Source: Candidatus Pacearchaeota archaeon (GTDB lineage: Archaea > Nanobdellota > Nanobdellia > Pacearchaeales > GW2011-AR1). Taken from it: 64,000 nt of DNA. Below, in pieces: positions 12,621 to 30,543 of this stretch. The first letter of the stretch is position 1; each line of letters opens with the position of its first letter. The DNA is taken from assembly GCA_041651235.1 (NCBI GenBank), contig JBAZJQ010000001.1, positions 302,449 to 366,448 of the forward strand. The letters are read 5' to 3'. Made by a program: the position numbers and the translations under genes. The notes under the pieces are model-generated. The model worked only from the letters and a program-made list of their open reading frames with translations, did no database searches and was not told the origin of the DNA.

Positions 12621-15600
12621 AAAAGAGACGGAAAGATATTTGGGCCTTATTTATATGAGAATTACAGAGAAAATGGAGTTACTAAAACTAGATATCTTGG
12701 AATAGGCAAGAGCAGAAAATTGCGGGTTAATAAGATATTATTTATTGTTTTAGGGTTATTTTTAGTTGCTTTAATTTTGGGAGGGATTTTTTTACCTAAA
12801 GCTAATTTTTCTTTAGAAAATTTAAAAGGAGAGTTATTTAGCGAACAATTTGATGTTTCTGTGAGTATTGCAAATAATCATGCCCCTGAATTTTTAGATA
12901 TAGATAAAGATATTTTTGTTTGTGAAAATAGGGATTTAAATTATTTTTTTAAAATTACTGATTTTGATGGGGATGAACTAACTTCTTCTCTAAGTGATTT
13001 AGATCCCTTTTATATGGGGGAGTGTAATCGGATGAATAATAATGATTTTGAATGTAATATTGTTTCTTGGGTATTAAATAAAGAAGACCATATTAAACCC
13101 AAACAAATTCCTGGAGAAGGTTGGGCAACTTATCCTGAAGAAATAACTATCAGTGATGGAGATTCTGCTAATTATTTTAACACAAATATAGTTGTTATTG
13201 AAGTTAATAACGCCCCTAATTTAACAAATATTCCTACACAAACTGTTTGGACAAAGGGAGATGATAGTTTTTTTAATTATCAAGTTAAAGTAAATGATAA
13301 AGAAGAAGGAAATGAATTTTTAGGCAAACTTAAATTTAATTTAAGTTTTTTAGATTCTACTAGTTTTTTTAATATTAATTCAACTGGTTTTATGAAATTT
13401 AATGCAACTAATAGGAATGATTTAGTTGGGGTGTATAATTTAAGGGTTTGTGTTAATGACAGTGGATTAACTAACACTATTCATCCAAATATTAGTCTTT
13501 GTTGGAATGAGGGACAAAATGCAGATCCTAAATTTTCTTGTAATGATTTTGGTTTAACAATTACTAATAATAATCGCCCTCCTAATATTACTTCTTATTA
13601 TCCGAATTTAACTTTTAGCACCGATAGTATCAATGAGTTGTATTTTAATATTAGCAAATATGATCCTGATTGGACTATCCCGGATTCTTATTGGTATCTC
13701 GATGGTTCTTTAGCACAATATGTTGAAGGTAGGCAGGGAGATTATGTTGATGAGTTTATATACGCTTTCGGATGTGGAATTTCTGGAGAACATAAATTAA
13801 TGGTAGTTGTTAGTGATGGCCTATTAAATTCTTCAGTTCAATGGAATATTAGTGTTATTAATGTCCCCTGTCCAACTACTCCTTCAGGAGGGGGTGGTGG
13901 CGGAGGCGGTGGAAAATTGGTTTGTAAAGAGAAATGGGTTTGTGGGGACTGGAGCCAGTGTGAGAATTTTGCGTTGTCTTCAAATCAATTAGATTACGAG
14001 ACTAATTTATTAATTAAAGAGAGATGTTCTTTATTTAATTGGGATGCTTCTTTTTGCGGATTTCAAACTAAAAATTGTGTTGACTTAAAACATTGTAAGA
14101 CGAATTTAACTAAGCCTGGAAATTTACAGGAATGCTATTACACTGTAAATCCTAGTTGTAATGATGGAATTAAAAATTGTCATGAGGGAAGCTGCGAGGT
14201 ATTAATTGATTGCGGAGGTCCATGTGATAATTGTCCTAGTTGTAATGATGGAATTAAAAATCAAGGTGAAACTGGAGTTGATTGTGGAGGGCCATGCAAG
14301 GTATGTTTAGAAAAACCAATTGCACCATTTTTATTTAAATCATTTGTAACTTATTCTTTAATTGCTTTTGTTGTTTTAATATTATTTTTAGCTGGAAGCC
14401 AGATTTGGAAATATTTTTCATTTAAAAAACTTGAAAAGAAGAAAAAACAAGAAGCAATTGAATCTAGCCAAATTGTCAATTTATTTTTTATAGTTTTGGT
14501 TGTTGTTGCATTAATTTTAGCTAATAGTTACATTATGGATTTTTCTGGCTCTAAGAATCTTCCTGATTTAAATCAGGGAGTTTTGTATAGCTATGGGTTA
14601 TTAAATTCTGTTTTTTCTAATTTAGGAATTTTTATTAGTGGTCCAATTGTCAGTGGAGATGGATTAACTCAATTAATTATTGGAGATGATACTGATGAAG
14701 AAGAAGGAAAAATAAGATATACTATTTGCAATGACGCTTTTTGTGTGAAAAAAGAAAAACCCTCTTCTAGTGTTTGGACAGTTAATTTTTATGCAATTTT
14801 TGAAAATAATGGTGGTGGAGCAATTAGTGATGGGGCTTGTCAGATAAGATTTGATGGTCCAGAGGGTTATTCTGGATGGAGTGATATGGTTTTTAATACA
14901 GACCGATATGCATTTTCAAGTACATTTGATTATAAAGGAGAATGGGATTTTGAAATACAGTGTTCTAAAGATAGTTCGAGTGTTTCAACAACTGAACCTT
15001 TTGTAATAACCAACACTGTTCCATATATTATTCAAACTGCAGCAGGACACATTGATTTTAATGGAGATGGAGACAGGGATGATTTGCAGTGCAATGAAGA
15101 TGAACTTTGTTATTATGATTTCAGTAAAAATGTTAGCGATGACGATACTAATGATGATTGGGTTTATGGAGTCAATACAATCAATACCACTTTAACTAAG
15201 TATAGTTTAGATGCAGACACTGGAATGCTTATAATTAATATCACTAATTCTATTAATACTGGGAATAATAAACAAATTGAATTAAATGTAAAGGATAGTG
15301 AAAGTACATTAAGATCTGCATTATTATTTGTAGATGTTAAAAATGTAAATGATGCCCCAGTTTTTATTAATTTAGAAAATAAAACATTTAATTCAGGAGA
15401 TTTGTTTGAATATATAATTCAAGTGGGGGATGAGGAAAATAATTATCCATTTAAATTTAATATAGATTACTTAGATTGTTCTGTTGCTGATTGCGATTTG
15501 TTTGATGGGCAATATACTTTTGATGCAAGAAATGGAAAATTAAATATTAGTTTTAGTCCTGTTGAGGCAGATGTTGGAAGTTATCTAATTAACTTTAGTG

Positions 15601-17702
15601 TAATGGATAATAGTTCTTTGGGAAATAAAACAACTAGTCAAGTGGTTAATTTCACAGTGGAAATTCCTATTTGGAGACAAGACATAGAATTAAATTATGG
15701 ATTAACAGAAGATCAATTGTTTTCTTTGGATTTAACTACTTTAGCTCTTAATCCAATAGGAATTAGTTTTTCTAATAAAACCAATGATATGCCTAGCTTT
15801 TCTTTAAATGAAGAGGGAATAATTAGCTTTAGCCCTAAAGATATAGATATAGGATACCATGAAATAGAAATTATTGCAAGCAATTCTGAAGCTAGTTCTT
15901 TAAGAACATTTAATTTCACTGTAACTAATATCAATGATTTACCTGTCTTTGGTTCCTTGCAAATACAAGGAGCAATAATTAGCGGAAAAAATTATTCTGT
16001 TTTTGAAAATACAGACACAAAAGTTTCTTTGTTTGTTAATGATGATGATTTAATTATTCCTGCTTCTCAAAAAGCATTTTATAATGAAGATTTTAATGTT
16101 AGCTTAAAAATTATTGGGCCAAATAGTTCCTTATTTAAGTTTAATTCAGGAGAATTATTTTCTACAAATCAAAAGCTATATTCTGTGAATTTTATTCCGA
16201 GAGCTGCGGATGTTGGACAGTATAATCTAAGTATTAATGTAACGGATAATTCTAATCAGTCTTTTGCTTATGGATTTATTTTAAAGATTTTAGCAAGGCC
16301 CTATGATCCTCCGAATATCACTTTCCCAGATAGTTTAAGAGAATTTAGTTTAATTGAAAATCAGAGTGCAAATTTAATTTTTAAAGCAAACCATACGGTA
16401 GGGGATAATCTGAGATATAAATTTTATATTAATGGAACATTAAAAGATAGTTTGCTTTATTATGGAGATAATACGGATTTAATTTGGAATTGGGCCCCCT
16501 TATTTACAGAGGAGACTTATGACAATAAAACTAATTTAACCCTTATTGTTGAAAATCCTCATTATCCTGAGTTTAATATTAGCAGAACCTGGAATTTAAC
16601 TATTAATCATTCTAATGCCCCCCCTGAATTTATTGATGAAATTCAACCAAGGAGTTTTCCGTATAATCTTGTTTTAGAAGAAAATTTAGGTTATTATTTT
16701 AGAGATATAGACCATGAAGATTTGCATTATAAACAAAATGTTAGTTTCGTAGTTAGTAGTAATTCTAGCCCTAGTGATATTATTATTGGAGAGGTTTCAG
16801 AAAATTGGACAATTACCTTATCTTCTTCTAGACTTGCTCCCTTTAAAGAAACATTAAATATTACTGCTTATGATTTAGATGAAAATGGAAACTATCTAAG
16901 AAATGTCACTAGTAATAATTTTGTTATTGAATTACTTGAACCTGAAAAAGAACCTGTTCCAACTCCAAGTCCTTCTCCGGATAGTGGTGGTGGAGGTGGA
17001 GGAAGCTCTAAAATCATTGCATTAAAGATAATTGTTCCTGGAAAAATTTCTGCTTTTCAAGGAGATAAAATTGATATTCCTATTTCTCTCTTAAATACTG
17101 GTAAAACCAGTTTTAAGGATATTGGTTTGTTTAGTTCTGCATTTAAAGATGGAAATTCATCTAATGAAATAACTACTTCTTTAGATAGAAATTCTTTTAG
17201 TGTTCTAAATCCCGGACAACAAGAAAATTTAACTTTATCCGCTATATTAAATACTGATAAGCTGGGAGATTATGAGATACTTATTAATTTTAGTTCTAAA
17301 AATCCGATTTATTTTGATTGGGGGAAAATTTATATTAATTTACAAAGTATTAATGAGTCTAATGTAGGAGATTTAATTGTGTTTACAGAGGAGCTTATTG
17401 TTGAAAATCCTGCTTGTGTAGAAATAACTGAAATCATAGATGAAGCAAAAGAATTGCTTGATAGAGGGGATTTAATTAATGCGAAAGTTAAAACCGAAGA
17501 AGCAATTGCTGCATGTAAAGAAAGTATTTCTCAGGTAGGCATTCCCAGCAGAAGTAAATCTATGTTTTATGCTTTAAGTATTTATTTGGCTGTAGCAATT
17601 GCAGGAGCTTTTGCAATCGGGATTATTTATTATATTGTCCAAAGAAGAAAAATTAGAAAAAAATATAGGGAGGTGATTGAAGAATCTAAAAACTCTGAAT
17701 AA
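12600..17702 (+). CDS. giant (1700 aa) cadherin-like repeat surface protein
   Basis: N-terminal KYIKRDGKIFGPYLYENYR motif plus TM. Repeated domain ends of the cadherin type (NNHAPEF, VNNAPNL, NNRPPNIT, VNDAPVF, INDLPVF, SNAPPEF). Cys-rich CNDGIKNxxExxxDCGGPC modules, poly-Gly and PT linkers, an internal TM pair and a C-terminal TM with basic tail. Confidence 0.85.
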   Translation: MVHKKYIKRDGKIFGPYLYENYRENGVTKTRYLGIGKSRKLRVNKILFIVLGLFLVALILGGIFLPKANFSLENLKGELFSEQFDVSVSIANNHAPEFLDIDKDIFVCENRDLNYFFKITDFDGDELTSSLSDLDPFYMGECNRMNNNDFECNIVSWVLNKEDHIKPKQIPGEGWATYPEEITISDGDSANYFNTNIVVIEVNNAPNLTNIPTQTVWTKGDDSFFNYQVKVNDKEEGNEFLGKLKFNLSFLDSTSFFNINSTGFMKFNATNRNDLVGVYNLRVCVNDSGLTNTIHPNISLCWNEGQNADPKFSCNDFGLTITNNNRPPNITSYYPNLTFSTDSINELYFNISKYDPDWTIPDSYWYLDGSLAQYVEGRQGDYVDEFIYAFGCGISGEHKLMVVVSDGLLNSSVQWNISVINVPCPTTPSGGGGGGGGGKLVCKEKWVCGDWSQCENFALSSNQLDYETNLLIKERCSLFNWDASFCGFQTKNCVDLKHCKTNLTKPGNLQECYYTVNPSCNDGIKNCHEGSCEVLIDCGGPCDNCPSCNDGIKNQGETGVDCGGPCKVCLEKPIAPFLFKSFVTYSLIAFVVLILFLAGSQIWKYFSFKKLEKKKKQEAIESSQIVNLFFIVLVVVALILANSYIMDFSGSKNLPDLNQGVLYSYGLLNSVFSNLGIFISGPIVSGDGLTQLIIGDDTDEEEGKIRYTICNDAFCVKKEKPSSSVWTVNFYAIFENNGGGAISDGACQIRFDGPEGYSGWSDMVFNTDRYAFSSTFDYKGEWDFEIQCSKDSSSVSTTEPFVITNTVPYIIQTAAGHIDFNGDGDRDDLQCNEDELCYYDFSKNVSDDDTNDDWVYGVNTINTTLTKYSLDADTGMLIINITNSINTGNNKQIELNVKDSESTLRSALLFVDVKNVNDAPVFINLENKTFNSGDLFEYIIQVGDEENNYPFKFNIDYLDCSVADCDLFDGQYTFDARNGKLNISFSPVEADVGSYLINFSVMDNSSLGNKTTSQVVNFTVEIPIWRQDIELNYGLTEDQLFSLDLTTLALNPIGISFSNKTNDMPSFSLNEEGIISFSPKDIDIGYHEIEIIASNSEASSLRTFNFTVTNINDLPVFGSLQIQGAIISGKNYSVFENTDTKVSLFVNDDDLIIPASQKAFYNEDFNVSLKIIGPNSSLFKFNSGELFSTNQKLYSVNFIPRAADVGQYNLSINVTDNSNQSFAYGFILKILARPYDPPNITFPDSLREFSLIENQSANLIFKANHTVGDNLRYKFYINGTLKDSLLYYGDNTDLIWNWAPLFTEETYDNKTNLTLIVENPHYPEFNISRTWNLTINHSNAPPEFIDEIQPRSFPYNLVLEENLGYYFRDIDHEDLHYKQNVSFVVSSNSSPSDIIIGEVSENWTITLSSSRLAPFKETLNITAYDLDENGNYLRNVTSNNFVIELLEPEKEPVPTPSPSPDSGGGGGGSSKIIALKIIVPGKISAFQGDKIDIPISLLNTGKTSFKDIGLFSSAFKDGNSSNEITTSLDRNSFSVLNPGQQENLTLSAILNTDKLGDYEILINFSSKNPIYFDWGKIYINLQSINESNVGDLIVFTEELIVENPACVEITEIIDEAKELLDRGDLINAKVKTEEAIAACKESISQVGIPSRSKSMFYALSIYLAVAIAGAFAIGIIYYIVQRRKIRKKYREVIEESKNSE

Positions 17703-17763: not shown

Positions 17764-19074
17764 ATGGCAAAACCTAAAATTAGAGATACATTTATTGATG
17801 AAGAAGCTAAATTAAAGAAAAAACTAGAAGATTTAGAAAGAAAGTATCGGGGAGAACCTGCAGAAGATAAGTTTGTTCAAGAAATAGAAAGAGATCCGAT
17901 TTCTGAAGTAATTCCTGCAGATACTTCTAATCCGAAAAAGTCAGAAGAAAATTCTAAACCTGAGTTTGAATCTTATGAGGAAGAATATGAGGATGAAGAT
18001 GAGGAGTATCCTGAGGAAGAGAAAAAAGCACCTCTTGAAAATGTTAAATTAATCGAGCCTGTTTCTATTAAAATTAAACCTGTTCAAATTAAACTAAAAG
18101 GAGATCCAAGACCAAGTGAAGCTGAAGTTCAAAGAATTGCAGACGCTATTTATAAAATAAAAAAAGAAATTTCCAAGGTTTTAATTGGACAAGAAGAAAT
18201 TGTAGATGGTTTAATTAGGGGGTTGATTTGTAATGGACATGTTCTTTTAGAGGGAATTCCGGGTATTGCAAAAACTCTTTCTATAAGAGCATTAGGTGCG
18301 GTTAGCGGATGTGATGTCAAGAGAGTTCAGTTTACAGTTGATTTGCTTCCAACAGATATTACCGGAATAACTTCTTATACTCCCCAAAAAGGATTTGAAG
18401 TAATAAAGGGGCCTATTTTTGCTAATTTTTTGATTGCCGATGAAATTAATAGAAGTCCTCCTAAAACTCAATCAGCGCTAATTGAAGGTATGCAAGAAAA
18501 GCAAGTAACCATTGGAAAAGAAAATTTTTCATTACCTAATCCTTTTTTTGTTATGGCAACTGAAAATCCTTTGGAAAATGCAGGAGTTTATCCTCTTCCA
18601 GAAGCTCAAATTGATAGATTTTTGTTTAAATTAATTATGAGTTATCCTAAGGAGGAAGAAGAAAGAGTAATCATGGAGAATAATATGACCTTGCAGAAGT
18701 TTGAAAATTTTAATATTAAGCCAGTTATAAAACCTAAAGATATATTGCATATGCAAGAAATAGTTAAGAAAGTTTATCTAGATAATAGCATTAAAACTTA
18801 TATTCTTGAAATAGTTAAACGAACAAGAAATAAAAAATTTCAAGATTCAGAGTATCTTGCTTATGGGGCTTCCCCAAGAGCAAGTATCGCTTTATTTATC
18901 GCAAGCAAAGCTAAAGCATTAATGGAGGGAAGAAATTATGTTATCCCTGAAGATGTTAAGAAAATTGCCTATGATGTATTAAGGCATAGGCTAATTTTAT
19001 CTTACAAAGCTACTCTTAAAAATATAAATCCTGATGATTTAATTAGAAATATTCTAAATGAAATTAAAGTCTAA
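17764..19074 (+). CDS. MoxR-family AAA+ ATPase with acidic N-terminal extension
   Basis: Walker A LLEGIPGIAKTL, Walker B LIADEINR, MoxR-type ATENPLE..G.YPLPEAQIDRF. GAGGAG upstream. Confidence 0.9.
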   Translation: MAKPKIRDTFIDEEAKLKKKLEDLERKYRGEPAEDKFVQEIERDPISEVIPADTSNPKKSEENSKPEFESYEEEYEDEDEEYPEEEKKAPLENVKLIEPVSIKIKPVQIKLKGDPRPSEAEVQRIADAIYKIKKEISKVLIGQEEIVDGLIRGLICNGHVLLEGIPGIAKTLSIRALGAVSGCDVKRVQFTVDLLPTDITGITSYTPQKGFEVIKGPIFANFLIADEINRSPPKTQSALIEGMQEKQVTIGKENFSLPNPFFVMATENPLENAGVYPLPEAQIDRFLFKLIMSYPKEEEERVIMENNMTLQKFENFNIKPVIKPKDILHMQEIVKKVYLDNSIKTYILEIVKRTRNKKFQDSEYLAYGASPRASIALFIASKAKALMEGRNYVIPEDVKKIAYDVLRHRLILSYKATLKNINPDDLIRNILNEIKV

Positions 19075-19981
19075 GATGGAAAGGCAATTGAATCTAGACA
19101 TTCCAGAAAGTGTAGCGGAGTTTGAAACTCTAATTAGAAAAGTTTTGCCTAAAAATATAATGTTCCAAATAATTTATGGGAAAGGATTGGAATTTGATGG
19201 TTATAGGTATTTTTTACCAATTGATGATGCAAGCAATATTGATTGGAAAGCAAGTGTCAGATCTGGTAAAATATTAATTAGAAAATATATCGAAGAAAGG
19301 GATTTTAAAATTATTTTTTTAGTTGATGTAAGTGAAAATATGGTTTTTGGTTCTACTAATAAATTAAAATGTGAATATGCTGCAGAGCTTGTTTCAGCAT
19401 TAGCTCATGTAATCCTTGGTGCGGGAGACAGAGTGGGTTTTTTCTTATTTAATAATGAAATTATAAAAAAAAGAGATCCGGGTTTTGGCAATAGGCAATT
19501 TAGTATTCTTGCTCAAGAATTATCGGATCCTATTAACTATGGGGGGGCTTGGGATTTGAATAAAGCTTTAGAGGAAGTTTTAGGGAGATTAGGAAAAGAT
19601 ACTACTATGGTTTTTATTGTTTCTGATTTTATTCGGTTAAATGATTCTAATAAAATGAATTTAAAGGGTTTAGCCTCTTTATTTGAGACAATTGCTTTAA
19701 TAATCAGAGACCCTTTAGATATTTCTTTTCCAGATATTAATAAAGAAATCGTTTTAGAAAACCCCGAATCAAGAGACCGAATTGTTGTAAATCCTCATGT
19801 AATTAAATATGCATATCAAATTCAAGCTATCGAACAATTAAATAAAACCAAAAATATTTTTAGAGATGCAAATATAGATTTTGCTGAATTTAAAACTAAT
19901 GTCCCATTTTCGTTAGATTTAGCTAATTTTTTAAAAGAAAGATCACAAAGGAGAGTTTATAAGAAAAATGATGTACATTAG
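19058..19981 (+). CDS. DUF58-family protein (MoxR partner, vWA-like)
   Basis: IDWKASVRSGKILIRKYIEERD and FLVDVSENMVFGS signatures. The real start may be the ATG at 19076, just after the MoxR stop. Confidence 0.85.
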   Translation: MKLKSKMERQLNLDIPESVAEFETLIRKVLPKNIMFQIIYGKGLEFDGYRYFLPIDDASNIDWKASVRSGKILIRKYIEERDFKIIFLVDVSENMVFGSTNKLKCEYAAELVSALAHVILGAGDRVGFFLFNNEIIKKRDPGFGNRQFSILAQELSDPINYGGAWDLNKALEEVLGRLGKDTTMVFIVSDFIRLNDSNKMNLKGLASLFETIALIIRDPLDISFPDINKEIVLENPESRDRIVVNPHVIKYAYQIQAIEQLNKTKNIFRDANIDFAEFKTNVPFSLDLANFLKERSQRRVYKKNDVH

Positions 19982-20888
19982 TTTTACGCATCCATTTTAT
20001 TTAATATTCTTATTTAGCATACCTCTGATTATCTTTTTACATTTTTTTAGTCTTAAAGCTATACGGGGTAATGCATTAAAATTTGCTAATTTTGAGGCCA
20101 TTGCAAGAGTAAAAGGAATAGATATTTTTTCTAAAAATATTTTCTTGTTATTTTTTGATATTCTCCTAGTAGTTCTGTTAGTCTTATCTCTTTCTGGGAT
20201 TAATTTACATAAAGAGGTAGATGCGAGTTCATTTTCATTTGTTATTGCTATTGATTCTTCACAGAGTATGAGTGCAAATGATATCTTACCTACTCGAATA
20301 GATGCTGCAAAAGAAACTGCAAAAACTTTCATAGATTCTTCCCCGTATGATTCTTCTATAGGGATTATTTCTTTTTCAGGAACTTCTAGTTTAGAACAGC
20401 AGATTACTAACAACAAACAGCTTCTTAAAACTGCAATTGATAATATCCAGCTAAGCAATACCGGAGGAACAGATATTTATGATGCAATTCTTTTTTCTTC
20501 AACTTTACTAACAAATGAGAAAAATAAAGGGGTTATTATTTTAAGTGATGGACAGATTAATACCGGAAATGTTTATGATGCAATTGAATATGCTAAAGAA
20601 AAAAATATCCTAGTTCATACAATTGCAATCGGAACTTTGGAAGGAGGAGAGACAATTTATGGTTTATCTAAAGTTGATGAAGAAAGTTTAAAGAGCATTT
20701 CTTATAACACCGGAGGAAAATTTTTTAGTGTTCAAAACAAAGCAGAATTAGAACAATCTTTTAAAGATATCATACAAGTAACTAGGAAAGTCGGAACAAT
20801 AGAATTAAATTTGTATATCCTTATGCTTTTAATTGTCTTATTTATTTTCAGAGGAATTTTAATAAGTATGAATAAAATTTTGTGGTAA
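19968..20888 (+). CDS. membrane-anchored von Willebrand factor A domain protein (BatA-like)
   Basis: Two N-terminal TMs, MIDAS DSSQSMS, GGTDIYDA, ILSDGQIN, C-terminal TM. Confidence 0.85.
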   Translation: MMYISFTHPFYLIFLFSIPLIIFLHFFSLKAIRGNALKFANFEAIARVKGIDIFSKNIFLLFFDILLVVLLVLSLSGINLHKEVDASSFSFVIAIDSSQSMSANDILPTRIDAAKETAKTFIDSSPYDSSIGIISFSGTSSLEQQITNNKQLLKTAIDNIQLSNTGGTDIYDAILFSSTLLTNEKNKGVIILSDGQINTGNVYDAIEYAKEKNILVHTIAIGTLEGGETIYGLSKVDEESLKSISYNTGGKFFSVQNKAELEQSFKDIIQVTRKVGTIELNLYILMLLIVLFIFRGILISMNKILW

Positions 20889-21003
20889 ATTTATTGATAA
20901 AAGATTAAGACATAAGGGGAGCATATGAAGAGATCAAGGTGCGTTGGATTCTTAAAGGATATTTTAATGAACAAAATATTTATTGTTTACTCGGGATTAT
21001 ATT

Positions 21004-21432
21004 TTAATCAATTTCTTTATCAACTAGTTCTCTTAATTCTCTAATTATCTCATTAATTTCCTCGGCACTTATTTCTCTTCCTGAATATCTTATATCTGAC
21101 ATTAATTTACTGAAACCCGCAAAATCTATTTTATTTTGTTTTTCAAATTCTTCTGCAAGCTCTAAATAAGTTAGATTATACCCTAAATGATAATACTCTC
21201 TAAAAAACACTCTCATTAGCTTGTTAAGTTTCTCAAATTTTATTTCTGGATTTTCATTTGCAGTTTCTATTTCTTCTAGTTGTTTTTTATAGAATTTGAG
21301 TTTATTTTTTTCAAAAGATAGTTTTTGGTAAAGTTTCTTGTTTTTGGAATAAAAAAACCATGCAATTGCAATTAATATTATTAAGACTAATGCAAGCGGG
21401 ATTAGAATCTCTAGAGGAATAATCAATGCCAT
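21004..21432 (-). CDS. single-pass membrane protein, possibly DUF4381-like Bat-module accessory
   Basis: N-terminal TM, then a helical domain (LNKLMRVFFREYYHLGYNLTYLELAEEF). Placed convergently next to the MoxR/DUF58/vWA genes. Family assignment is tentative. Confidence 0.45.
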   Translation of the reverse strand: MALIIPLEILIPLALVLIILIAIAWFFYSKNKKLYQKLSFEKNKLKFYKKQLEEIETANENPEIKFEKLNKLMRVFFREYYHLGYNLTYLELAEEFEKQNKIDFAGFSKLMSDIRYSGREISAEEINEIIRELRELVDKEID

Positions 21433-21507
21433 GTTAAGGAGTAGTGTTAAGATTTTAAAAAAGTATCTGTTGATTAGTTATTTAAAGAATAGATCCCTTT
21501 AGATTTT

Positions 21508-22440
21508 ATGGAAAAAAGAGGACAGACCAGTGTTTTAACAATTATTTTAATAGTGCTTATTTCTATAACTGCAGTGATAATTCTTTGGAATGTAGTTTCT
21601 TCTATACTTCAAGATAAAACTGCCCAGATTGATTCTTCGGTTTTAACTAATAACTTAGGTATTAAAGAAATTGATTTATTTGTAACTGGGCTTTTAAAAA
21701 TCACTCTTCAAAATACCGGTAAGGGAGAGATTAATGAATTAAAATTTGTTTTTTATGATATCTATGGCAGGAGTCATATAGAAAATAGAACCGATTCTTT
21801 AAAAGAATTAGAAACAAAAGCTTATTCTTTTAATCCTATTCCCAACTTTGGTAAACTACAAAAAATTTCTGTTTATCCGGTTTCAAATAATAATCTTGGA
21901 GTAGAAGTTAGCAGCGAGGCTAAAGGTATATTTAATGTCCCAAAAGATTTAATTTCCTGGTGGAGATTTGAAGATGCAAATGATTTTGTAGGGAATAATG
22001 AGGGGCAATTGATGGGAGTCATTGCTAATGGCGAGCTATCCGGAGCAGGTTATTTTGAGGTTCAGAATAATTTAAATTTAAATAAAGAAATGGCAATTAG
22101 TTTTTTTATCTCCCCTTCTGCTAATGGAATTATTTTTGAGAAAGGAGATAATTATCAGGGAGAAATAATTGGAAATAAAATAAGATTTAGCCCCTGGAAT
22201 TTAGAAAGTGAAGAATTGAATTTTAATGACTGGAACCATGTCGTAATAACTATGAATAGTCTTGGAACTTATATTTATATTAATGGAAATTTAGCTGAAA
22301 CTGGAAGTTTAGCAAATTTGATTTTGAATGAAAACTCTTTGAAAATATATGGAATTAATAAAATTGATGAGTTTATGATTTTTAATAGAAGTTTAGTTTC
22401 TTCTGAAGTTTCAAATATTTATAATAATCTTAAGAGATAA
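21508..22440 (+). CDS. type IV pilin-like signal peptide fused to a LamG (concanavalin A-like) domain
   Basis: MEKRGQ-TSVLTIILIVLISITAVIILW (class III signal pattern). C-terminal LamG_3 pattern: LISWWRFEDANDFVGNNEG, WNHVVITMNSLGTYIYINGNL, IDEFMIFNRSLVSSEVSNIY. Confidence 0.75.
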   Translation: MEKRGQTSVLTIILIVLISITAVIILWNVVSSILQDKTAQIDSSVLTNNLGIKEIDLFVTGLLKITLQNTGKGEINELKFVFYDIYGRSHIENRTDSLKELETKAYSFNPIPNFGKLQKISVYPVSNNNLGVEVSSEAKGIFNVPKDLISWWRFEDANDFVGNNEGQLMGVIANGELSGAGYFEVQNNLNLNKEMAISFFISPSANGIIFEKGDNYQGEIIGNKIRFSPWNLESEELNFNDWNHVVITMNSLGTYIYINGNLAETGSLANLILNENSLKIYGINKIDEFMIFNRSLVSSEVSNIYNNLKR

Positions 22441-22578
22441 ATTTGAATTTTATTTATTAGTTTTTATTAATCGATTTTATTTGAATGAGTTATACACACA
22501 TACTAAGTATTATATACTTAGTTTATAGTAAGCTTTATAAGGTATATTTACATACATATTAAGTAATAAAATTATTAC

Positions 22579-22802
22579 TGTGTGTGAGACTTAAAAGTGG
22601 TGAGTGAAAATTGTAGTTAGAAATACTAATCAGAGAAGCTTAGAGAAAAATTTAATTGAAATTCTTAATCATAATTATTTTTGTTTTAAATTCCGGGACA
22701 GGTCAGTCTCACACACAATCCCTGCTTGGCCTGTCCTTTTTTCATTTTTATTTAAATTCTCCGGGGGGCCAGTCTCACACACACAATCACTTGGCTCCCT
22801 GG
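22579..22802 (+). promoter_or_regulatory. structured leader / candidate ncRNA: two tandem GC-rich hairpins plus an upstream complement of their loops
   Basis: Hairpin 1 is GGACAGGTC (22696-22704) / GGCCTGTCC (22728-22736). Hairpin 2 is CCGGGGGGCC (22761-22770) / GGCTCCCTGG (22793-22802). Both loops begin AGTCTCACACACA. TGTGTGTGAGACT at 22579-22591 is their exact complement. Confidence 0.55.
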
Positions 22803-22812
22803 TTTTTGTAAA

Positions 22813-25800
22813 ATGAATGAAAAAATAAGAAAACTAGAAGAGAGAAAACTGAAATTATTAAAAAATATAGACTATACTAAAAAGAAAAAGCAAGAGATAA
22901 TTGATTTTACTCAGAAGCTAGTTGGCGAATATATAAAGGGAAGAATTTCAAGAGCTCAATACGAGTCTCAGTTGAGCAAAACATTGAATAATAAGACTCC
23001 TGAACAGTGGGTTAGGTATTATGAGGAATACATAGAAAGTTATGAAAAACAAATTGATATTTGTGACAAAGAAATTAAAAAAGAAAAATCAAGAAGAATA
23101 AACAATAAAACTGTTTCTGTTTTGCTTATTGGAATTGTTTTAGTTTCTTTGATATTATTTATTTTTTCAAGTTATTTTTTTGGACCTGCAATTATAAATA
23201 AATTTTCAGGAATTTCTCAAGGAACCCAGACTAGTTTAAGCCAGGCTCAAAATGAAATTCAAACTCCGGAACTTCTTCCTGAACAAGCTATTCCAGCGGA
23301 GGAACTTGCTTTAACAGGAGTTTTCATGAATGGGCAAGATATTTCTTCTTCTGTAAAACAATTTCCAGCTGTTGCAGGAATGCCAGTAAGGTGGAAAGCA
23401 AAAGTTGATTTAAATGAAAATAGTGCTTTAGTTCTTCCAAATGAAGCAGAAAATATTGTTGTAAAAGAAAATGGAAAAGAAGTTACAAATGAAATCTCTG
23501 TTGATAAAAAGAGTTTTTTAGGTATTTTTAATAAAAGAACGGAAGTTTCTGTTACAGATTCAGATAATTATGAAATTAATTACGAAACTCCTGCACCTCA
23601 AATTAGCGCAGAGAATTTCGAAAATCGAGGAGCAATTAAAATTAGCGGACCGGATAATTTAGGATATACTAATGTTTTAAGTTATGTGGAAATTCCCGGA
23701 CAATTAAAAATGTCTGAAATTAATAAATTAAAGTTTTATTGGATTAAAAATGGAATAAGAACAGAACATAAATATGTCGCTTATGATTTAAATGAAGATG
23801 GATTTGTAGATACTATTGAATGGATAACTCCTCATTTGTCTGAACAAACCTTTGAGTGGATAATTGAAATTTCCAATGCAGAACATTTAGATTCTAATAA
23901 AGAATTTATTTCAGATATTTATGAGCAAGTTAAAGAACAAGATGATATTTGGAGCGAGCAAATAAATAATAATGAATATGTTAGAGTTAGATTCAGGCAA
24001 GCGTTAGATAACACAAGAGATATTACTATTTATGCAAGGAAAACAGGTTCAGATGAATCTGAAAAATCAACAATTGAAGTTTATAGTGAAAATGGAAATA
24101 ATTTAATTGCAAGATTTGAAAATATTAATCAAGAAAATTGGTATAAAATTTATTTAAATAATTTACCTGGGGGAGAAAGTTATGATGTTTTTGATTTGAA
24201 GATAATTGGAAATGTAGAATTTGATTATATTGTTGATCCGATTGTTATCCCTTCATATTCTGAACAATTAATTTCTGAAGGAAATTTTTATCATTTAAAT
24301 ATTTCAAATTCTGCTCCTTATAACCAATTATATCTTTACCATAATTTTGATGTTGATGGAACGAATATTCCTTCTTGGGATAACAAAGGAACTCCTGATA
24401 GCACCTTCGGTGCAGTTTATAACTCTTCGGGCCTATATGGGGGGGCGAGAACATTTAATGGAAACACTTATTTGAGCAATTTACGTACTGAATTACAGTT
24501 TAGTAATCCTGGGCAATATACCTGGATGATGTGGATTAAAAGAAGTTCTTTAACAAATAAAGAGGCGCTATTTAATTTTGCATTTTCAAGAGCATGGGAT
24601 GCTGGAGGAAGTATTACTATCGGTTCTGTTTTAGAAGATGATAAACTTTATTTTAATAATTTATACGGGGGAGATTATATTCGTTCAAGTGGAACAATTG
24701 AGGGTGGTTGGACTCATGTGGCTGTTAGTTATAATAATGGAGCAATTGCACTTTATATTAATGGTAATCAAGACGGGAGTGGGACTTTAAACTGTATGGG
24801 TAGTGAAGGTTATGATTTAAATATTGGAGGAGATAGTTTCGGCGCCTTAGATTATAATGCAAATGAAGGAATTTATTTTAAAGGGGAGATGGATGAAGTT
24901 ATGGTTTTTAGAAGCGCATTAACTTCTACTCAAATCTCTGATATTTACAAAAACCAAAGCAATAGATTTATTATTTCAGGAAGCCAAAATTTTGGTAACC
25001 AAAGTCTTTTAAATATTTCTGGTTCTCCAATCAGTGTTCTGGGAGATTATAAAAATATTTCCAGTTATATTAACTTAAGTGTAGGATATTATACTGGCCA
25101 ATGGTATTCTACAAATACTCAAGTCTTTAATGGAGATAATTTATTTGATACTCATCCTCTTTCAACTAATTTAACTTTAAACTTTACATTTTATTCTGGG
25201 AGTAATAACGGAAACTATAATTTTTATTCTCCTATTTTATTTTCTGATGTGGATGTTAGTAAGGGGAGCGTAGATACTACTCCTCCTGCAATTAATTTTA
25301 CGTATCCTACTCCTGCAAATGCTTCTAAAATTTATGCTGATAATTTTGTTGTTAATGTAAGTGCAAGTGATGTTGGAAAAGGAGATAATAATATTTCTAC
25401 ATTTATTGATTTTAACAGAAGTTTAGTTGGTTGGTGGAGAATGGATGATGTTAATGGAAATATTGTTTATGACAATTCAAATTATGGAAATGATCTGAGT
25501 GTGAGAAATGGTGCTTATCAAACAAATGGATTTTTAGGAAATGGATTTGGATTTGATGGAGTAGATGATGTTTTGGTGAATAATTCTAAAATTAATGGAC
25601 TTGCTATCGGGGGGGGAAATGCAACTATTTCTGTTTATGCAAAAATAAATCAAGATTATGATGTTTTCAAAGGAATTTTTGAATATGGTAGGGCGAGTGG
25701 AGATTCTTATGGAATTTGGAGAAATGCTTCAGATACATTTCATTGCAGATTTGGGTATGGGGGAGCTGCTAATTGGCAAGATACTATAGATAGTGTTCAG

Positions 25801-28800
25801 ATGTTTTATCCTAATCAATGGTATCATATATTGTGTACTATGCAGGACATTGGAAATGGAAATTTTGAATATAAAATTTATATTAATGGAAAATTGGATA
25901 ATACTAAAGTCAGAATTCCTAATAGTTGGATATCTCTTGAAAAATCCTTAGCTATTGGTGCCTATGGTTATGGTGATGGAGAGCTTTTTAATGGAACAAT
26001 AGATGAAGTAATGATTTTTAAGAGAGTATTAAATGAAAATGAAATTAAAACTCTTTATGCAAATTATACTGCTAAAAACTTAAGTGTTAGTTTTAATAAT
26101 TTGAAAATTGGGAATAATTATACCTTTAAAGCATATTCTCAAGATATTAAAGGAAATGTTAATTTAACTGAAAAAAGAGAAGTTGAAATTTCTGCTCCTG
26201 GAGATTTAATTGCAGATTGCAGTGGAACAGACCCTTACACAAATCAAGATTGGATTATTAAAGATAATACTCTTTGCGAGAATGTTAATATTAAATTATC
26301 TCAAGATAGGATACTCGCAATGTATGAGGGAGGAAATCTTACTCTAAAAAATGTTAGTTTGACTTTGGATCCGAGTTCAGATAAATTTTTGATTTATGTC
26401 GAGGATAATTCTAAAATAAATATAACTAATTCTAAGATTAATTCAACTGGAAATCGTTATGCGATTCGTGCAAATAATAATAGTAATACTTATATCTCTG
26501 ATTCTATTTTTTATGATATGGGAGCATCTAATGCTCAACCATACCAAGGGGTTATAAATGCCTATGATAATGTTTATGTTCTTATAAAAAATAACTCCTT
26601 TTTTAATATCGGAGGCATTTTTAAATATTCAGGAGCATTAACAGGACCTACCCAGAGAATCTTTCTTTATAATAATCAAGTTATTAATTATAGTTCTGAT
26701 TGTATCCGAAGTTATTATGGAAAAGGGATTGTTGTAGAAAATTTATCTTGTTATAATGGGGCATTATATGGTTCGGGAATTAGACTTCAATATTATAATT
26801 CTAATTTAACTTTTAAAAACATAAATATCACTAATATTATTGATGACGGGATTGTTATTTTAGATGGGGCAGATAATTTAAGTTTTGAGAATATTAACTT
26901 AATTAATGTAAGTGATCTGAGACATCAAGGATACCATGGTTCAGGGGTTAATCTTTATCAAAATACCGGAAATATAACTGATATTTTATTTAAGAATATC
27001 TTTTCTACTGTAAATGATATAACTTCGGAAGACGGCATTGATGAAGCAGTTCAAATAGGTAATGGGGGTGTAGGGAAAATTCTTAATGTTACTTTTATTG
27101 GCTGTAATTTTTCTTCTGTAGGAAGTTATCCTGTTGGGGTAAATGCCAAAGATTCTTATATTAATTTCATAAATACTAGCCTTAACAGTGATTTAGGAAA
27201 TAAGTTTAGTTATGAATCAACATCTAAAAATGTTACAATTAATGTTAAATGGTATTATTGGGGATATGCTAAAGATGAAATTGGTTTTCCGGTTCAAGGA
27301 GTGAATATTTCAGCCTTTAATAAATCTAATAATTTACAATTTAGTAGTTTAACTAATGGAAACGGATTAGTTAACAAAGAATTAATTGATTTTATAGATT
27401 TTGTAAACGGGTCTGGATCTCAAAATAGAAGTTATTATTCAAATTATACTATTAATGCAAGTTATCTGGATTATCCTAATAAAACTATTTCTCATAATAT
27501 GACTTATGAACATAATGTCTATGACGAATTTGTGTTTTTAATTCCAGATAGACATGCTCCTGCAATTAATTTTACTTATCCTACTCCTGCAAATAATTCT
27601 ATTGTTTACACAGATAATTTTGTTGTTAATGTAAGTGCAAGTGATATTGGAAGAGGAGACAATAATATTTCTACATTTATTGATTTTAACAGAAGTTTGG
27701 TTGGTTGGTGGAGAATGGATGATTTTTGTGTTGTTTGTGGGAAGAATGGTAGAGGAGATTATCTTTCTTACTGGAAATTGGATGATAGTTTTTCAGATGG
27801 AGTTGCAAATGATGAGAAAGGAATTAATAACGGAAAAATTTATGGAGCTACCCAAATTATTGACCCTCAAAGAGGAGAAGTTGCAAGATTTGATGCAAGT
27901 GCTTCTAATTATATTAATGTGGGTAATAATTCAAATTTAGAGATTAGTAATGCGATTAGTATCTCTGGTTGGATTAAATTAGAAGGAACTGCAGTTACTC
28001 AAAGGCTTGTTTCTAAAAAAGTTAGTTCTGGGGCTCAAACTGGGTTTGAAGTTGAAATTTATACTTATAGTTTTGACCCTCGTTTAAGATTCTATGCTCA
28101 GGGAAATACTTACGCAAATGCTTACTATAATTGGAATTCCAATCCGGGATGGCATCATATTGTTGCTGTTGCTAATGGTAATGAAGGGAGATTGTATGTT
28201 GATGGAGTGGATAGAACAACAGATAGTACTATAGATCCTATTTTATCTAATAATCTAAATTTAACTATTGGAAGACAAAGTGGTACTGGTGCAGCTCCTT
28301 TTGAGGGATTAATGGATGATATCAGAATCTATGATTTTGCACTAACTCCGGGAGAAGTTTTAGAGATTTATAATTCAGAATCTAACTGCGATCCGGGTTT
28401 TTGTGATTATTCTGATTATGGAACTAATTGCTTAGTTGTTGGAGGAGCAACTCAAACAAGTGGAAAAATAGGAAAGGCACTTAATTTCCCCTTGAATAGT
28501 TTTTTGAATTGTACTAATGATTTAGACTTTAATATTACTAAGGAGATTACTCTTTCTTTGTGGGTTAATGCCCCTTCTCTCCCAGCAGACAACCAGGAAA
28601 TTTCAATATTAAGAAATGAAGAATCAGGGTATAATTTAATTATTGGAAATGAAGAAGTTGATGGAATTATTGCTCCAATTAGATTTGAGATAAGAAATGC
28701 ATCAAGTGGAACAAATCAATATCAAAAAATATATAGTAATTCTGATATCTCACCCAATACTTGGTATAATGTAATCGCAACTTACGATGGAAATTTAATG

Positions 28801-30543
28801 AAATTGTATCTTAATGGAAATTTAAATTCTCAAAAATTAGTTAGTGGAAAAATCTTAAATGATAATTCTGGATTAATTATTGGAAAGGGTTCTTTTAGTG
28901 ATTTGGCTACTGGACTTGTTGATGAGGTTATGATTTTTAAAAGAGCATTGGATGAAAATGAAGTTAAAGCCCTTTATGCAAATAAAACATTGGATAACTT
29001 AAAAACTAGTTTTACTAATTTATCTGCAGGAAATTATACGATGAAAGCATATTCTCAAGATAGTTATGGGAATATTAATTCAACTGAAGAAAGAAGTGTT
29101 AAAGTAACAGGACTTGTTGCTCCGGAAATTCTTTATATTACCCCGATGAGTGAAGTAGTTTATCCTGATGAAGATAATGGGGAGGGAGCTACTGCCACTA
29201 GAATTTTAGATAAGATTATTTTTGGGGTTACTGATGGAAATGGAGCTATTGATTTACCGAATAGCGGGATCATAGCTTCAGGATATATTGAACATACTCC
29301 TAATACTCCTTATGGTTATACTGATGTGGCTCATACCCGAAGATATTTTAATGGGGTGGACTGTGCTTTTAGAGGACTGATTGAAGAAGGAGGAAAAGAA
29401 TATTCTTGTGATGTGAATATTTATTATTATGATGATGCTGTTGACTGGAGTGTTAATATTACTAGTTTCAAAGATTTATCGGGATTAGAAGCTTCAAATC
29501 TTCCTTATTCTATGAATGGAGCTTTTAAAATTGGAGAGAGAAAGGGAGTTTATTTGTCAGAAAACATTTTAGATTTTGGGAATGTGAATAAATCTGTTCT
29601 TCCTGTTGAAGCATTAACCCCGATGATTATAAAAAATACTGGAAATAGGAATGTCGATGGAATTAGTAAATTACTCCAATTTAGAGGAAGAGATTTAACT
29701 GGAGAAACCTATACCGAACAAAAAATTTCTACTGAAAATTTCCAAGTTAATTTAGATAATCCCACTCCCTGTAGTCCTAGCAGTCAGTTTATAACTTTAA
29801 CTGATAAAATTGATAATCCTGCTGGAACTTTATTTAATGGTTTGATTTTACATAATGGGGATTTAGTTTTAGGAGATGCTCAAAATAATGTTTATTTTTG
29901 CTTAGCTAGTTTAATTGATACTCCTTTGAACAGTCAAACATATTCTACTATTCAAACAGGAGATACTTGGGAAATTAATGCAATTAGCTTATTTTTGATT
30001 AAGTTAATTAGATTTAATTTAGGAATAATTTTATTTGCAGTTGGAATAAGAATAAAGAGAAAAAAGAAGTTAGTTACAGAAGACAGATTATTAGATGTTC
30101 TAGAATCTAAACTAGAAGATAAATATGGGATTAATATTGAAGAATTGCTTTCTGAAATTAAAAAGAAAAAAGAAAAAGAAATCGAAGTTCCTTTGATAAT
30201 CTTTAGAAAAAGTATCGGGCCTGCTGAAATCTTATGTAAATACCTTAGAGAAAATAAAAAATTAAGGTTTAGTGAAATTGCTAAGCTAATTAATAGAGAT
30301 GAAAGAACTGTTTGGATTAATTACAGAAATGCTCAGAAGAAAATAAAAGGAAAGATAGAAATACAAAAAAGTTTAGTTATTCCAATATCTGTTTTGTCAA
30401 ATAAAAAATTGAGTATTTTAGAATCAATAATAAATTATCTAAAAGAAAAAGATTTGAAGAATTCTGAAATAGCAGAAATATTAAACAAAGACCAAAGAAA
30501 TATCTGGACATTGTATTCAAGAGTTAAGAAAAAAATAAAATAG
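22813..30543 (+). CDS. giant (2576 aa) LamG / beta-helix surface protein with cytoplasmic double-HTH tail
   Basis: N-terminal coiled coil plus TM. Four LamG_3-like modules (each ending DEVMxF.R.L...E...LY). PbH1-type beta-helix repeats (NITNSKINSTGNRYAIRANNNSNTYISDSIF...). C-terminal TM, then two LuxR/sigma-r4-like HTH motifs. Confidence 0.88.
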   Translation: MNEKIRKLEERKLKLLKNIDYTKKKKQEIIDFTQKLVGEYIKGRISRAQYESQLSKTLNNKTPEQWVRYYEEYIESYEKQIDICDKEIKKEKSRRINNKTVSVLLIGIVLVSLILFIFSSYFFGPAIINKFSGISQGTQTSLSQAQNEIQTPELLPEQAIPAEELALTGVFMNGQDISSSVKQFPAVAGMPVRWKAKVDLNENSALVLPNEAENIVVKENGKEVTNEISVDKKSFLGIFNKRTEVSVTDSDNYEINYETPAPQISAENFENRGAIKISGPDNLGYTNVLSYVEIPGQLKMSEINKLKFYWIKNGIRTEHKYVAYDLNEDGFVDTIEWITPHLSEQTFEWIIEISNAEHLDSNKEFISDIYEQVKEQDDIWSEQINNNEYVRVRFRQALDNTRDITIYARKTGSDESEKSTIEVYSENGNNLIARFENINQENWYKIYLNNLPGGESYDVFDLKIIGNVEFDYIVDPIVIPSYSEQLISEGNFYHLNISNSAPYNQLYLYHNFDVDGTNIPSWDNKGTPDSTFGAVYNSSGLYGGARTFNGNTYLSNLRTELQFSNPGQYTWMMWIKRSSLTNKEALFNFAFSRAWDAGGSITIGSVLEDDKLYFNNLYGGDYIRSSGTIEGGWTHVAVSYNNGAIALYINGNQDGSGTLNCMGSEGYDLNIGGDSFGALDYNANEGIYFKGEMDEVMVFRSALTSTQISDIYKNQSNRFIISGSQNFGNQSLLNISGSPISVLGDYKNISSYINLSVGYYTGQWYSTNTQVFNGDNLFDTHPLSTNLTLNFTFYSGSNNGNYNFYSPILFSDVDVSKGSVDTTPPAINFTYPTPANASKIYADNFVVNVSASDVGKGDNNISTFIDFNRSLVGWWRMDDVNGNIVYDNSNYGNDLSVRNGAYQTNGFLGNGFGFDGVDDVLVNNSKINGLAIGGGNATISVYAKINQDYDVFKGIFEYGRASGDSYGIWRNASDTFHCRFGYGGAANWQDTIDSVQMFYPNQWYHILCTMQDIGNGNFEYKIYINGKLDNTKVRIPNSWISLEKSLAIGAYGYGDGELFNGTIDEVMIFKRVLNENEIKTLYANYTAKNLSVSFNNLKIGNNYTFKAYSQDIKGNVNLTEKREVEISAPGDLIADCSGTDPYTNQDWIIKDNTLCENVNIKLSQDRILAMYEGGNLTLKNVSLTLDPSSDKFLIYVEDNSKINITNSKINSTGNRYAIRANNNSNTYISDSIFYDMGASNAQPYQGVINAYDNVYVLIKNNSFFNIGGIFKYSGALTGPTQRIFLYNNQVINYSSDCIRSYYGKGIVVENLSCYNGALYGSGIRLQYYNSNLTFKNINITNIIDDGIVILDGADNLSFENINLINVSDLRHQGYHGSGVNLYQNTGNITDILFKNIFSTVNDITSEDGIDEAVQIGNGGVGKILNVTFIGCNFSSVGSYPVGVNAKDSYINFINTSLNSDLGNKFSYESTSKNVTINVKWYYWGYAKDEIGFPVQGVNISAFNKSNNLQFSSLTNGNGLVNKELIDFIDFVNGSGSQNRSYYSNYTINASYLDYPNKTISHNMTYEHNVYDEFVFLIPDRHAPAINFTYPTPANNSIVYTDNFVVNVSASDIGRGDNNISTFIDFNRSLVGWWRMDDFCVVCGKNGRGDYLSYWKLDDSFSDGVANDEKGINNGKIYGATQIIDPQRGEVARFDASASNYINVGNNSNLEISNAISISGWIKLEGTAVTQRLVSKKVSSGAQTGFEVEIYTYSFDPRLRFYAQGNTYANAYYNWNSNPGWHHIVAVANGNEGRLYVDGVDRTTDSTIDPILSNNLNLTIGRQSGTGAAPFEGLMDDIRIYDFALTPGEVLEIYNSESNCDPGFCDYSDYGTNCLVVGGATQTSGKIGKALNFPLNSFLNCTNDLDFNITKEITLSLWVNAPSLPADNQEISILRNEESGYNLIIGNEEVDGIIAPIRFEIRNASSGTNQYQKIYSNSDISPNTWYNVIATYDGNLMKLYLNGNLNSQKLVSGKILNDNSGLIIGKGSFSDLATGLVDEVMIFKRALDENEVKALYANKTLDNLKTSFTNLSAGNYTMKAYSQDSYGNINSTEERSVKVTGLVAPEILYITPMSEVVYPDEDNGEGATATRILDKIIFGVTDGNGAIDLPNSGIIASGYIEHTPNTPYGYTDVAHTRRYFNGVDCAFRGLIEEGGKEYSCDVNIYYYDDAVDWSVNITSFKDLSGLEASNLPYSMNGAFKIGERKGVYLSENILDFGNVNKSVLPVEALTPMIIKNTGNRNVDGISKLLQFRGRDLTGETYTEQKISTENFQVNLDNPTPCSPSSQFITLTDKIDNPAGTLFNGLILHNGDLVLGDAQNNVYFCLASLIDTPLNSQTYSTIQTGDTWEINAISLFLIKLIRFNLGIILFAVGIRIKRKKKLVTEDRLLDVLESKLEDKYGINIEELLSEIKKKKEKEIEVPLIIFRKSIGPAEILCKYLRENKKLRFSEIAKLINRDERTVWINYRNAQKKIKGKIEIQKSLVIPISVLSNKKLSILESIINYLKEKDLKNSEIAEILNKDQRNIWTLYSRVKKKIK
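25283..25449 (+). repeat. intragenic direct repeat, copy 1 (167 bp)
   Basis: Matches 27557-27723 at a constant offset of 2274 bp, with about a dozen mismatches by eye. Encodes PPAINFTYPTPAN...NFVVNVSASD.G.GDNNISTFIDFNRSLVGWWRMDD. Confidence 0.85.
27557..27723 (+). repeat. intragenic direct repeat, copy 2 (167 bp)
   Basis: See copy 1. The last ~107 bp differ at only about 4 positions. Confidence 0.85.

Follow-up and report, generated by a model that had tools for sequence, protein, structure and literature searches.

A conserved leader with an open reading frame and covarying hairpins precedes a giant surface-protein gene in DPANN archaea and may pass ribosomes to it

Transcripts that hide a start region in their own fold are known from bacterial phages and plasmids. 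RNA phage MS2 relies on long-distance pairing and delayed folding, and in hok/sok fold-back inhibition is combined with mok-hok coupling, the overlapping upstream open reading frame (ORF) mok being required for translation of the main gene. To our knowledge, archaea have few described cis-regulatory RNAs, and the uncultured DPANN lineages, whose giant surface proteins are thought to mediate attachment to host cells, have none. In an archaeon, tight termination-reinitiation coupling takes place at stop/start overlaps of 4 or 1 nt and is lost at a separation of ~20 nt (PMC6728339; PMC10666635), and leaderless short-ORF attenuators of mycobacteria use poly-Cys codon runs to sense cysteine, upon which a downstream Shine-Dalgarno (SD) site is unmasked (Canestrari et al., bioRxiv 10.1101/834739). 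The latter appear to offer the nearest published logic for the element described here, a leader of ~250 nt in front of a gene for a protein of 2576 amino acids (aa). The element lies in a stretch of 64,000 nt from Candidatus Pacearchaeota archaeon (assembly GCA_041651235.1, contig JBAZJQ010000001.1, positions 302,449 to 366,448 of the forward strand), which has 29% G+C content and is referred to here as the window.

We lean towards reading this element as a translated, structured leader that would pass ribosomes to the giant gene by termination-reinitiation, with RNA conformers gating the passage. Our confidence is high for the anatomy of the leader and reasonably good for its translation and its coupling to the giant gene, and the specific gating model is put forward tentatively. 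The leader works like known systems of upstream ORF (uORF) coupling and RNA switching yet belongs to none of them, and it stands outside Rfam and Pfam. It joins a promoter and operator-like boxes, an open leader ORF, covarying hairpins, and a covarying long-range pairing, and provides a testable model for translation control of a very expensive gene in an organism using mostly leaderless mRNAs.

The initial annotation had described two tandem GC-rich hairpins with a shared loop at the end of the spacer before the giant gene. We located both hairpins, with their arms and loops, inside a leader ORF that runs into that gene:

22678 to 22687, plus strand: U-rich tract TTTTTGTTTT, which closes the AT-rich spacer just 5' of hairpin 1; relatives have a similar T-rich tract ahead of their first hairpin
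22695 to 22737, plus strand: hairpin 1, with 5' arm GGGACAGGTC (22695-22704), loop (22705-22727), and 3' arm GGCCTGTCC(T) (22728-22737)
22761 to 22802, plus strand: hairpin 2, with 5' arm CCGGGGGGCC (22761-22770), loop (22771-22792), and 3' arm GGCTCCCTGG (22793-22802)
22604 to 22816, plus strand: leader ORF (the uORF) of 70 codons, GTG to TGA, which spans both hairpins and whose TGA overlaps the giant ATG as ATGA (22813-22816)
22813 to 30543, plus strand: giant gene, whose 2576-aa product carries four LamG_3 domains, a hydrophobic segment, and, at the N terminus, a coiled-coil-like region

The two stems (10-12 bp) are GC-rich and mutually unrelated, and the near-identical, CA-rich loops of 22-23 nt share a 13-mer and both open with AGTCTCACACACA. 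Two G:U pairs occur in the stem of hairpin 2, which is followed by a T5 run at 22803-22807 and, 10 nt past the stem, by the giant-gene ATG at 22813. The AAA of TTTAAATTC preceding each stem can pair with the T-run behind it to give longer stems, and the outer A/U extension of hairpin 2 ends 1 nt before the ATG. As a pair the ~65-nt hairpin units form a direct repeat with a spacing of 66 nt, or 22 codons, and 77% identity over 39 nt. They are the sole intergenic GC-rich islands of the window, and the loop motif AGTCTCACACAC occurs three times in its 64 kb where 0.04 occurrences are expected. The 136-nt hairpin stretch has a predicted folding energy of -39.4 kcal/mol, compared with -25.3 ± 3.7 kcal/mol for dinucleotide shuffles (z = -3.9; none of 200 shuffles equal), and hairpin 1 is predicted to be more stable on the plus than on the minus strand (-17.7 versus -12.9 kcal/mol).

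A protein search returned relatives annotated as Pacearchaeota, Nanoarchaeota, and Woesearchaeota (DPANN), the closest of which is only ~40% identical over the N-terminal 500 aa of the giant protein. The three contigs with the best protein matches have the same upstream architecture as the window. A search of metagenomes with the DNA pattern of the promoter boxes (described below) gave 31 matches, comprising 14 further loci and chance matches, and a leader-peptide search added five distinct leaders, one of them from a metagenome-assembled genome at NCBI. The main comparison set consisted of 17 related loci plus the window; 20 distinct leaders were counted overall and 24 assemblies were examined. 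The initial annotation had named a leader of the giant gene among its candidate roles for the hairpins, and the element was indeed found directly upstream of every orthologue (650 to >2692 aa) in all recovered loci. The order of parts is the same in the 17 related loci and the window: a boxed promoter, a GU-rich 5' element, AAAGTGG, an AT-rich spacer of ~80-130 nt, a T-rich tract, one or two strong hairpins, and the ATG. Leader lengths span 161-433 nt, and in most loci the giant ATG lies 0-20 nt past the last hairpin, its A/U extension counted. One leader variant was identical in 18 contigs from several samples.

Two further scans gave chance matches only. Among species-representative genome contigs, the pattern TTAAGT..GTGTGT..AAAGTGGTGA found three, all bacterial, so that either the species representatives do not include this lineage or the search was too strict. 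A scan of viral contigs gave one chance match, within a viral coding region.

Alignment by MAFFT followed by RNAalifold missed the stems, the alignment not being structure-aware, and we used a covariance-model alignment instead, with a model built from the hairpins of eight relatives and then used to align eleven. In this alignment 95.5% of cells were paired, and 9 of 20 pairs had changes on both sides, against at most 3 in slid controls and 0 of 500 shuffles. G:U accounted for 50 of 516 stem pairs (~10%), and in 18 of 25 hairpins the plus strand had the greater stability. Relatives carry two types of hairpin, one with TTCTAGA...GGAG stems and the other with AAAGAGCAGGC stems adjoining the ATG, and loop sizes of leader hairpins range over 13-33 nt. 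Hairpin 2 of the window matched the covariance model from its relatives weakly (E = 0.064), consistent with its differing stem sequence. The leader thus holds genuine RNA hairpins, and the earlier proposal of a selected RNA structure, made from stems that differ and still pair, is borne out by covariation across relatives.

The initial annotation had also called for a check against known RNA families, and none was matched. With Rfam release 15, neither the window nor any of five related loci had a match that reached the gathering score, and a permissive scan of a 501-nt region gave matches at chance level only (E ≥ 0.8; 15-20 bits versus gathering scores of 45-90). An ARAGORN scan of the window found no tRNA or tmRNA. 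No C/D boxes (RUGAUGA, CUGA) or H/ACA features were visible, and snoRNA matches were sub-threshold (E 0.9-5.5). A split-tRNA or bulge-helix-bulge processing site, a guide RNA, and a diversity-generating retroelement were considered and set aside, with no supporting features. A replication origin with repeats like origin recognition boxes was rejected as well: GC skew does not turn at 22.7 kb, no orc1/cdc6 lies in the vicinity, and the element is invariably associated with the giant gene.

Counterparts of the leader ORF, of 48-135 codons, are present in 19 of the 20 distinct leaders, although these leaders have a G+C content of 18-31% at which such stop-free stretches would be unexpected if untranslated. 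Their start is a GTG in or beside the 5' element, in most loci the GTG of AAAGTGG, and 17 of the 20 leaders have an in-frame GTG at +5 to +21 of the predicted transcription start (+42 in the window). In 10 of 18 loci the whole leader is stop-free in one frame, the remaining frames carrying 4-17 stops. Within the AT-rich spacer (18-31% G+C), the ORF frame has 0 stops in 515 codons versus 44 and 93 in the other two; the zero follows from the construction, the ORF frame having been picked as the longest, and the evidence lies in the presence of such an ORF in all 17 loci. For the open frame a shuffle test returned P = 0.036 in the window, and 14 of 17 loci had P < 0.05. Relatives differ in net length by multiples of three, and none of the leader insertions (54, 57, and ~135 nt) shifts the frame or introduces a stop.

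At the other end, the stop codon overlaps the giant ATG as ATGA in nine of the 20 distinct leaders (the window and eight others) and as TAATG, with a 1-nt overlap, in one. In 18 of 20 it falls between -15 and +16 nt from that ATG, which agrees with the ~20-nt distance rule for termination-reinitiation. This arrangement resembles the coupled pairs of Huber et al. 2019/2023 in having co-directional ORFs joined by ATGA, a 1-nt overlap, or gaps of ≤15 nt, and in a downstream gene that lacks initiation signals of its own: no TATA box was found at -29 to -22 of the giant gene, and no SD site. It differs from those pairs in that the upstream ORF here is no protein partner, only its openness and the embedded RNA structure being conserved, and in that a single giant gene follows rather than a subunit pair.

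One alternative, in which a functional small protein of ~50-135 aa is made from the leader ORF and the hairpins are secondary, has in its favor the conserved position of the ORF, a peptide stretch LDKSLE..ATLHTFGKSILQISR common to one clade, and the eight such ORFs that gene callers annotated in a collection of 5.8 billion proteins. The substitution pattern runs against it, with 75, 103, and 96 changes at codon positions 1, 2, and 3 in nine close pairs; there is no synonymous excess and hence no sign of purifying selection on the peptide. Mean column identity of the leader peptides is 23%, no Pfam match was found for them, and the residues and motifs in common are exactly those encoded by the nucleotides of stems and loops. 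Compensatory substitutions in the stems replace residues on either side, and hairpin number and large insertions vary freely. We therefore regard a functional small protein as improbable; that the open frame is kept while substitutions are even across codon positions indicates that openness is selected and the peptide is not. The initial annotation had set conservation of the 70-aa ORF against the RNA structure. The ORF proved conserved in position and its peptide not, while the stems covary; conservation of the ORF does not refute the structure, and both layers are real.

A peptide that senses an amino acid was also considered as the basis of an attenuator and rejected, as no conserved run of codons for a sensed amino acid exists in the leader peptides. 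The one recurring motif is (L/S)HT, which the loop CACAC encodes and which appears a single time in each hairpin; both window loops read VSHT in the uORF frame. The absence of a codon run also separates this leader, in its archaeal host, from the mycobacterial attenuators, with which it would share a first cistron that is a short ORF at or near the predicted transcript 5' end, a leader duplex that would control downstream access, and a fold that ribosomes on the short ORF would decide. Here, in addition, the duplex is formed between the start region of the short ORF and loops inside the same ORF, and the downstream start would be reached by stop/start overlap.

Should the frame be incidental, the leader would be a purely noncoding structured 5' untranslated region or small RNA, serving protein or RNA binding or stabilization of the mRNA 5' end. 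Covarying stems, a 5' end that pairs with the loops, a leader peptide without amino-acid conservation, and the lack of a clean 5'-proximal start codon in the window and in L009 would all suit such an RNA. It would leave the 48-135 stop-free codons of 19 leaders unaccounted for, as it would the ending of these frames on or beside the giant ATG and their survival through indels and insertions, and we consider it quite unlikely. An independent small RNA, one of the roles offered in the initial annotation, likewise drew no support from the sequence comparisons. The double nature of the same 200 nt, both genuine ORF and structured RNA, calls for caution in annotation, and gene callers mostly miss the ORF.

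Two features lie upstream of the spacer, towards the 5' end of the leader:

22579 to 22591, plus strand: 5' element TGTGTGTGAGACT, an inverted third copy of the 13-mer and the exact complement of the 13-mer in both loops
22594 to 22603, plus strand: conserved AAAGTGGTGA, which holds the in-frame GTG of the leader ORF in most relatives and contains an SD-like GGTGA

The inverted third copy adds to the initial annotation. Gene callers chose the GTG in AAAGTGGTGA as uORF start in P0055, P0056, and P0059. In every locus a perfect complement of 8-18 nt to the locus's own 5' region lies inside a hairpin loop, and element and loop sequences change together between clades (window, TGTGTGTGAGACT/AGTCTCACACACA; L002, TATAGGTGTGTGTAAAG; L003, ATTAGGGTGTGTAAAAG; L007, AGTTCGGGTGTGTAAA; L008, AAGGTGTGTAAAGTGGCA), with clade-specific element variants of GAGACT, TATAGG, TTAGGG, and GTTCGGG types. 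The longest match averages 14.2 nt for cognate element:loop pairs versus 10.1 nt for noncognate ones. The duplex is bulged or has one mismatch in L003, L011, and L029, and in L019 two complementary segments, one U:G pair included, are nested around a local hairpin, which resembles an RNA helix and not a recombination site. In the GAGAC-type clade (window 22580-22603, L009, and L019) the 5' element itself contains an in-frame start-stop, GTG TGA or ATG TGA, which in the window makes a 4-codon mini-ORF directly before the long leader ORF.

The same repeats could be those of an inverton, in which a recombinase flips the 110-230 bp between element and loop repeats and so phase-varies the surface protein. 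Like invertons, the loci have short, perfect inverted repeats (10-18 bp) upstream of a surface-protein gene, and these differ between clades and are identical within a locus. Yet 24 of 24 assemblies have the same orientation, with hairpins and ORF intact, under a search pattern that was orientation-neutral, and one variant is identical in all 18 of its contigs. The TATA box lies outside the repeats, upstream of them, whereas the repeats themselves sit in RNA loops within an ORF; G:U stem pairs and the bulged or mismatched duplexes point to RNA, and no recombinase was present among the 29 window proteins scanned. An inverton is accordingly the least probable of the explanations given here, and a very improbable one.

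The long-range element:loop duplex is present in the nested minimum free energy (MFE) structure of 12 of the 18 loci, and is predicted to be favored by 6-14 kcal/mol in 11 of these and by 5.7 kcal/mol in L027. With 13-23 of its nucleotides paired in this way, a loop could not, on steric grounds, coexist with its closing stem. Taking this incompatibility together with the presence of the duplex in the MFE structures, we read the hairpins, which are local and would form fast, and the duplex, predicted to be more stable, as putative alternative conformers.

Alternative conformers would also serve a transcription attenuator that senses coupling, of the pyrBI type, in which a hairpin and U-run pause or terminate the polymerase unless a ribosome translating the leader follows, and the 5' element acts as anti-terminator by pairing with the loop. 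T-runs stand behind both window hairpins, four T5+ runs occur in the 250-nt leader as against 3.4-4.5 per kb in genes, relatives usually have T4-T8 behind the hairpin nearest the ATG, and the leader ORF spans the hairpins. As in the trp, his, and pyrBI attenuators, a leader ORF extends across alternative structures, and a hairpin with U-run precedes the structural gene. Against such an attenuator, the TTCTAGA-type hairpins (L008, L021, L023, and L026) have no U-run behind them, a regulatory codon run is missing, and the loops, at 13-33 nt, greatly exceed those of terminators. Archaeal polymerases, moreover, terminate at oligo-T and do not require a hairpin, and 26 T5+ runs lie inside the giant gene, so that T5 alone is not decisive. 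T-run density was tried separately as evidence of antitermination and proved uninformative: per kb, the giant gene is about equal to the others in T5+ runs. The initial annotation had offered a terminator pair as one role for the hairpins. In its bacterial form this did not hold, the window loops being far too large at 22-23 nt for a class with loops of 3-8 nt and a U-run within 2 nt of the stem, a scan of 22300-23000 for bacterial-type terminators being empty, and the T-runs not being conserved after one hairpin type. We consider transcription attenuation unlikely as the principal function; it overlaps termination-reinitiation coupling and may coexist with it.

The promoter of the leader is itself conserved:

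22493 to 22508, plus strand: upstream 16-nt box, consensus TACAyACAwATTAAGT, here TACACACATACTAAGT, overlapping a short palindrome ACTAAGTAT/ATACTTAGT
22534 to 22540, plus strand: TATA box of the leader promoter, TTTATAA, without variation across the 18 aligned loci
22549 to 22564, plus strand: downstream 16-nt box, TACATACATATTAAGT, which lies past the TATA box and before the predicted transcription start
22562 to 22579, plus strand: small A/U hairpin AGTAATA-AAAT-TATTACT at the predicted 5' end, part of the MFE structure and formed by a 14-nt AT-rich insertion specific to the window versus most relatives

Two copies of the 16-nt box, 56 nt apart, flank the TATA box in all 18 aligned loci, with the upstream copy at a constant distance from it (18 of 18), and within the window the box is found at this locus only. 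Judging from this arrangement, the pair are putative operator sites for a transcription factor and would add a transcriptional layer of control. Transcription is predicted to start at ~22563, from the TATA-to-ATG spacing of the window's leaderless genes (TATA + 22 nt). Most first genes of the window (~20 ORFs; for example, those at 6148-7356, 21508-22440, 30596-31585, 42510-43016, and 63226-63981) have a TTTAAAT or TTTATAA that ends ~22 nt ahead of their ATG, which indicates that leaderless mRNAs predominate in this organism; GGAGG or GGTGA SD sites, at -12 to -5, are seen at a few internal genes. A scan for bacterial sigma-70 promoters was uninformative, the host being an archaeon. The TTTAAAT before each hairpin fits the genome's TATA consensus, and a start there would fall in the loop. 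We consider an internal TATA box there less likely than the main reading, since it is not followed by a start codon and the stem covariation needs both arms in one RNA.

We propose that the hairpins would form the 3' part of a ~250-nt leader that is transcribed from this promoter together with the giant surface-protein gene. Since leaderless transcripts are the rule for first genes and the giant gene lacks a promoter and an SD site of its own, ribosomes would load at the 5'-proximal GTG of the leader ORF, translate through the leader, melting the hairpins, and terminate at the TGA of ATGA before reinitiating on the giant ORF. In the open fold, with local hairpins and a free 5' end, loading would be possible. 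The closed fold would be the long-range duplex of 13-18 bp between 5' element and hairpin loop, which covers, and so would bury, the uORF initiation region. Loading on the nascent transcript and continued ribosome traffic would keep the RNA open, and RNA left untranslated would lock shut; synthesis of the costly 2576-aa protein would in this way be tied to early, ongoing translation. The likeness to MS2 and hok/sok is that a start region would be hidden by a distant complement until nascent RNA or upstream translation permits its use. Those, unlike this leader, are bacterial phage and plasmid systems, without homology to it, in which the complement is not in hairpin loops and no giant gene follows.

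A bolder version, which we hold to be doubtful, is a self-locking mRNA leader, in which the transcript start, bearing a throw-away ORF, would be captured by complementary loops made ~130-230 nt later, and only ribosomes on the nascent RNA could open the giant gene via stop/start reinitiation. If true, it would represent a class of translation-coupled RNA switch not described before in DPANN archaea, with synthesis of a 2576-aa surface protein tied to cotranscriptional translation.

Several observations weigh against this coupled and gated leader. The element:loop matches are almost all perfect Watson-Crick pairings, which a constraint at the DNA level would fit too. Steric exclusivity and the direction of the switch come from thermodynamic predictions that do not model pseudoknots, and the transcription start, uORF translation, and reinitiation are all steps that we infer. 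In the window, the uORF begins ~42 nt from the predicted 5' end, behind the 4-codon mini-ORF and two in-frame stops, so that ribosomes could not load there in a simple leaderless way. The open frame of L009, 59 codons long and closing with ATGA, has no canonical start. L027 has its uORF stop 71 nt short of the giant ATG, which is preceded at 7 nt by a GGAG; an SD site seems to have taken the place of coupling in this locus.

Some leaders have acquired additional sequence. In L044 (2261-2317, 57 nt) and L045 (~973-1026, 54 nt), which belong to two different clades, an insertion CATCAAAAATCTTC...GGCTTAAAAATT...TTTTTAAA occupies the same point of a hairpin 5' arm. It keeps the frame and lacks stops, folds into two mini-hairpins, and bears TAAA at each end; a tiny mobile element may be involved, or else a module that is optional. 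L038 (NCBI GCA_053535155.1) has a ~135-nt insertion in the spacer (~4060-4200) and, even so, an uninterrupted leader ORF of 135 codons. In L003 the leader is closely preceded by a fragment of an IS66-type transposase (DDE_Tnp_IS66; 35-397).

Both subunits of DNA polymerase D are encoded at 75-5637 of the window, which is hence archaeal. Upstream of the leader stand genes for MoxR, DUF58, VWA, and DUF4381 proteins and for a 310-aa LamG protein. This gene order is kept in the window (17764-22440), L002, L038, and L040, as MoxR AAA+ ATPase, DUF58, VWA (BatA-like), DUF4381-like (on the minus strand), and a protein of ~300 aa, in which a LamG domain was detected in the window and L040. A second giant gene of the window (1700 aa; 12600-17702) has an ordinary upstream region of the leaderless type and no such leader, which indicates that the element is specific to one giant-gene family.

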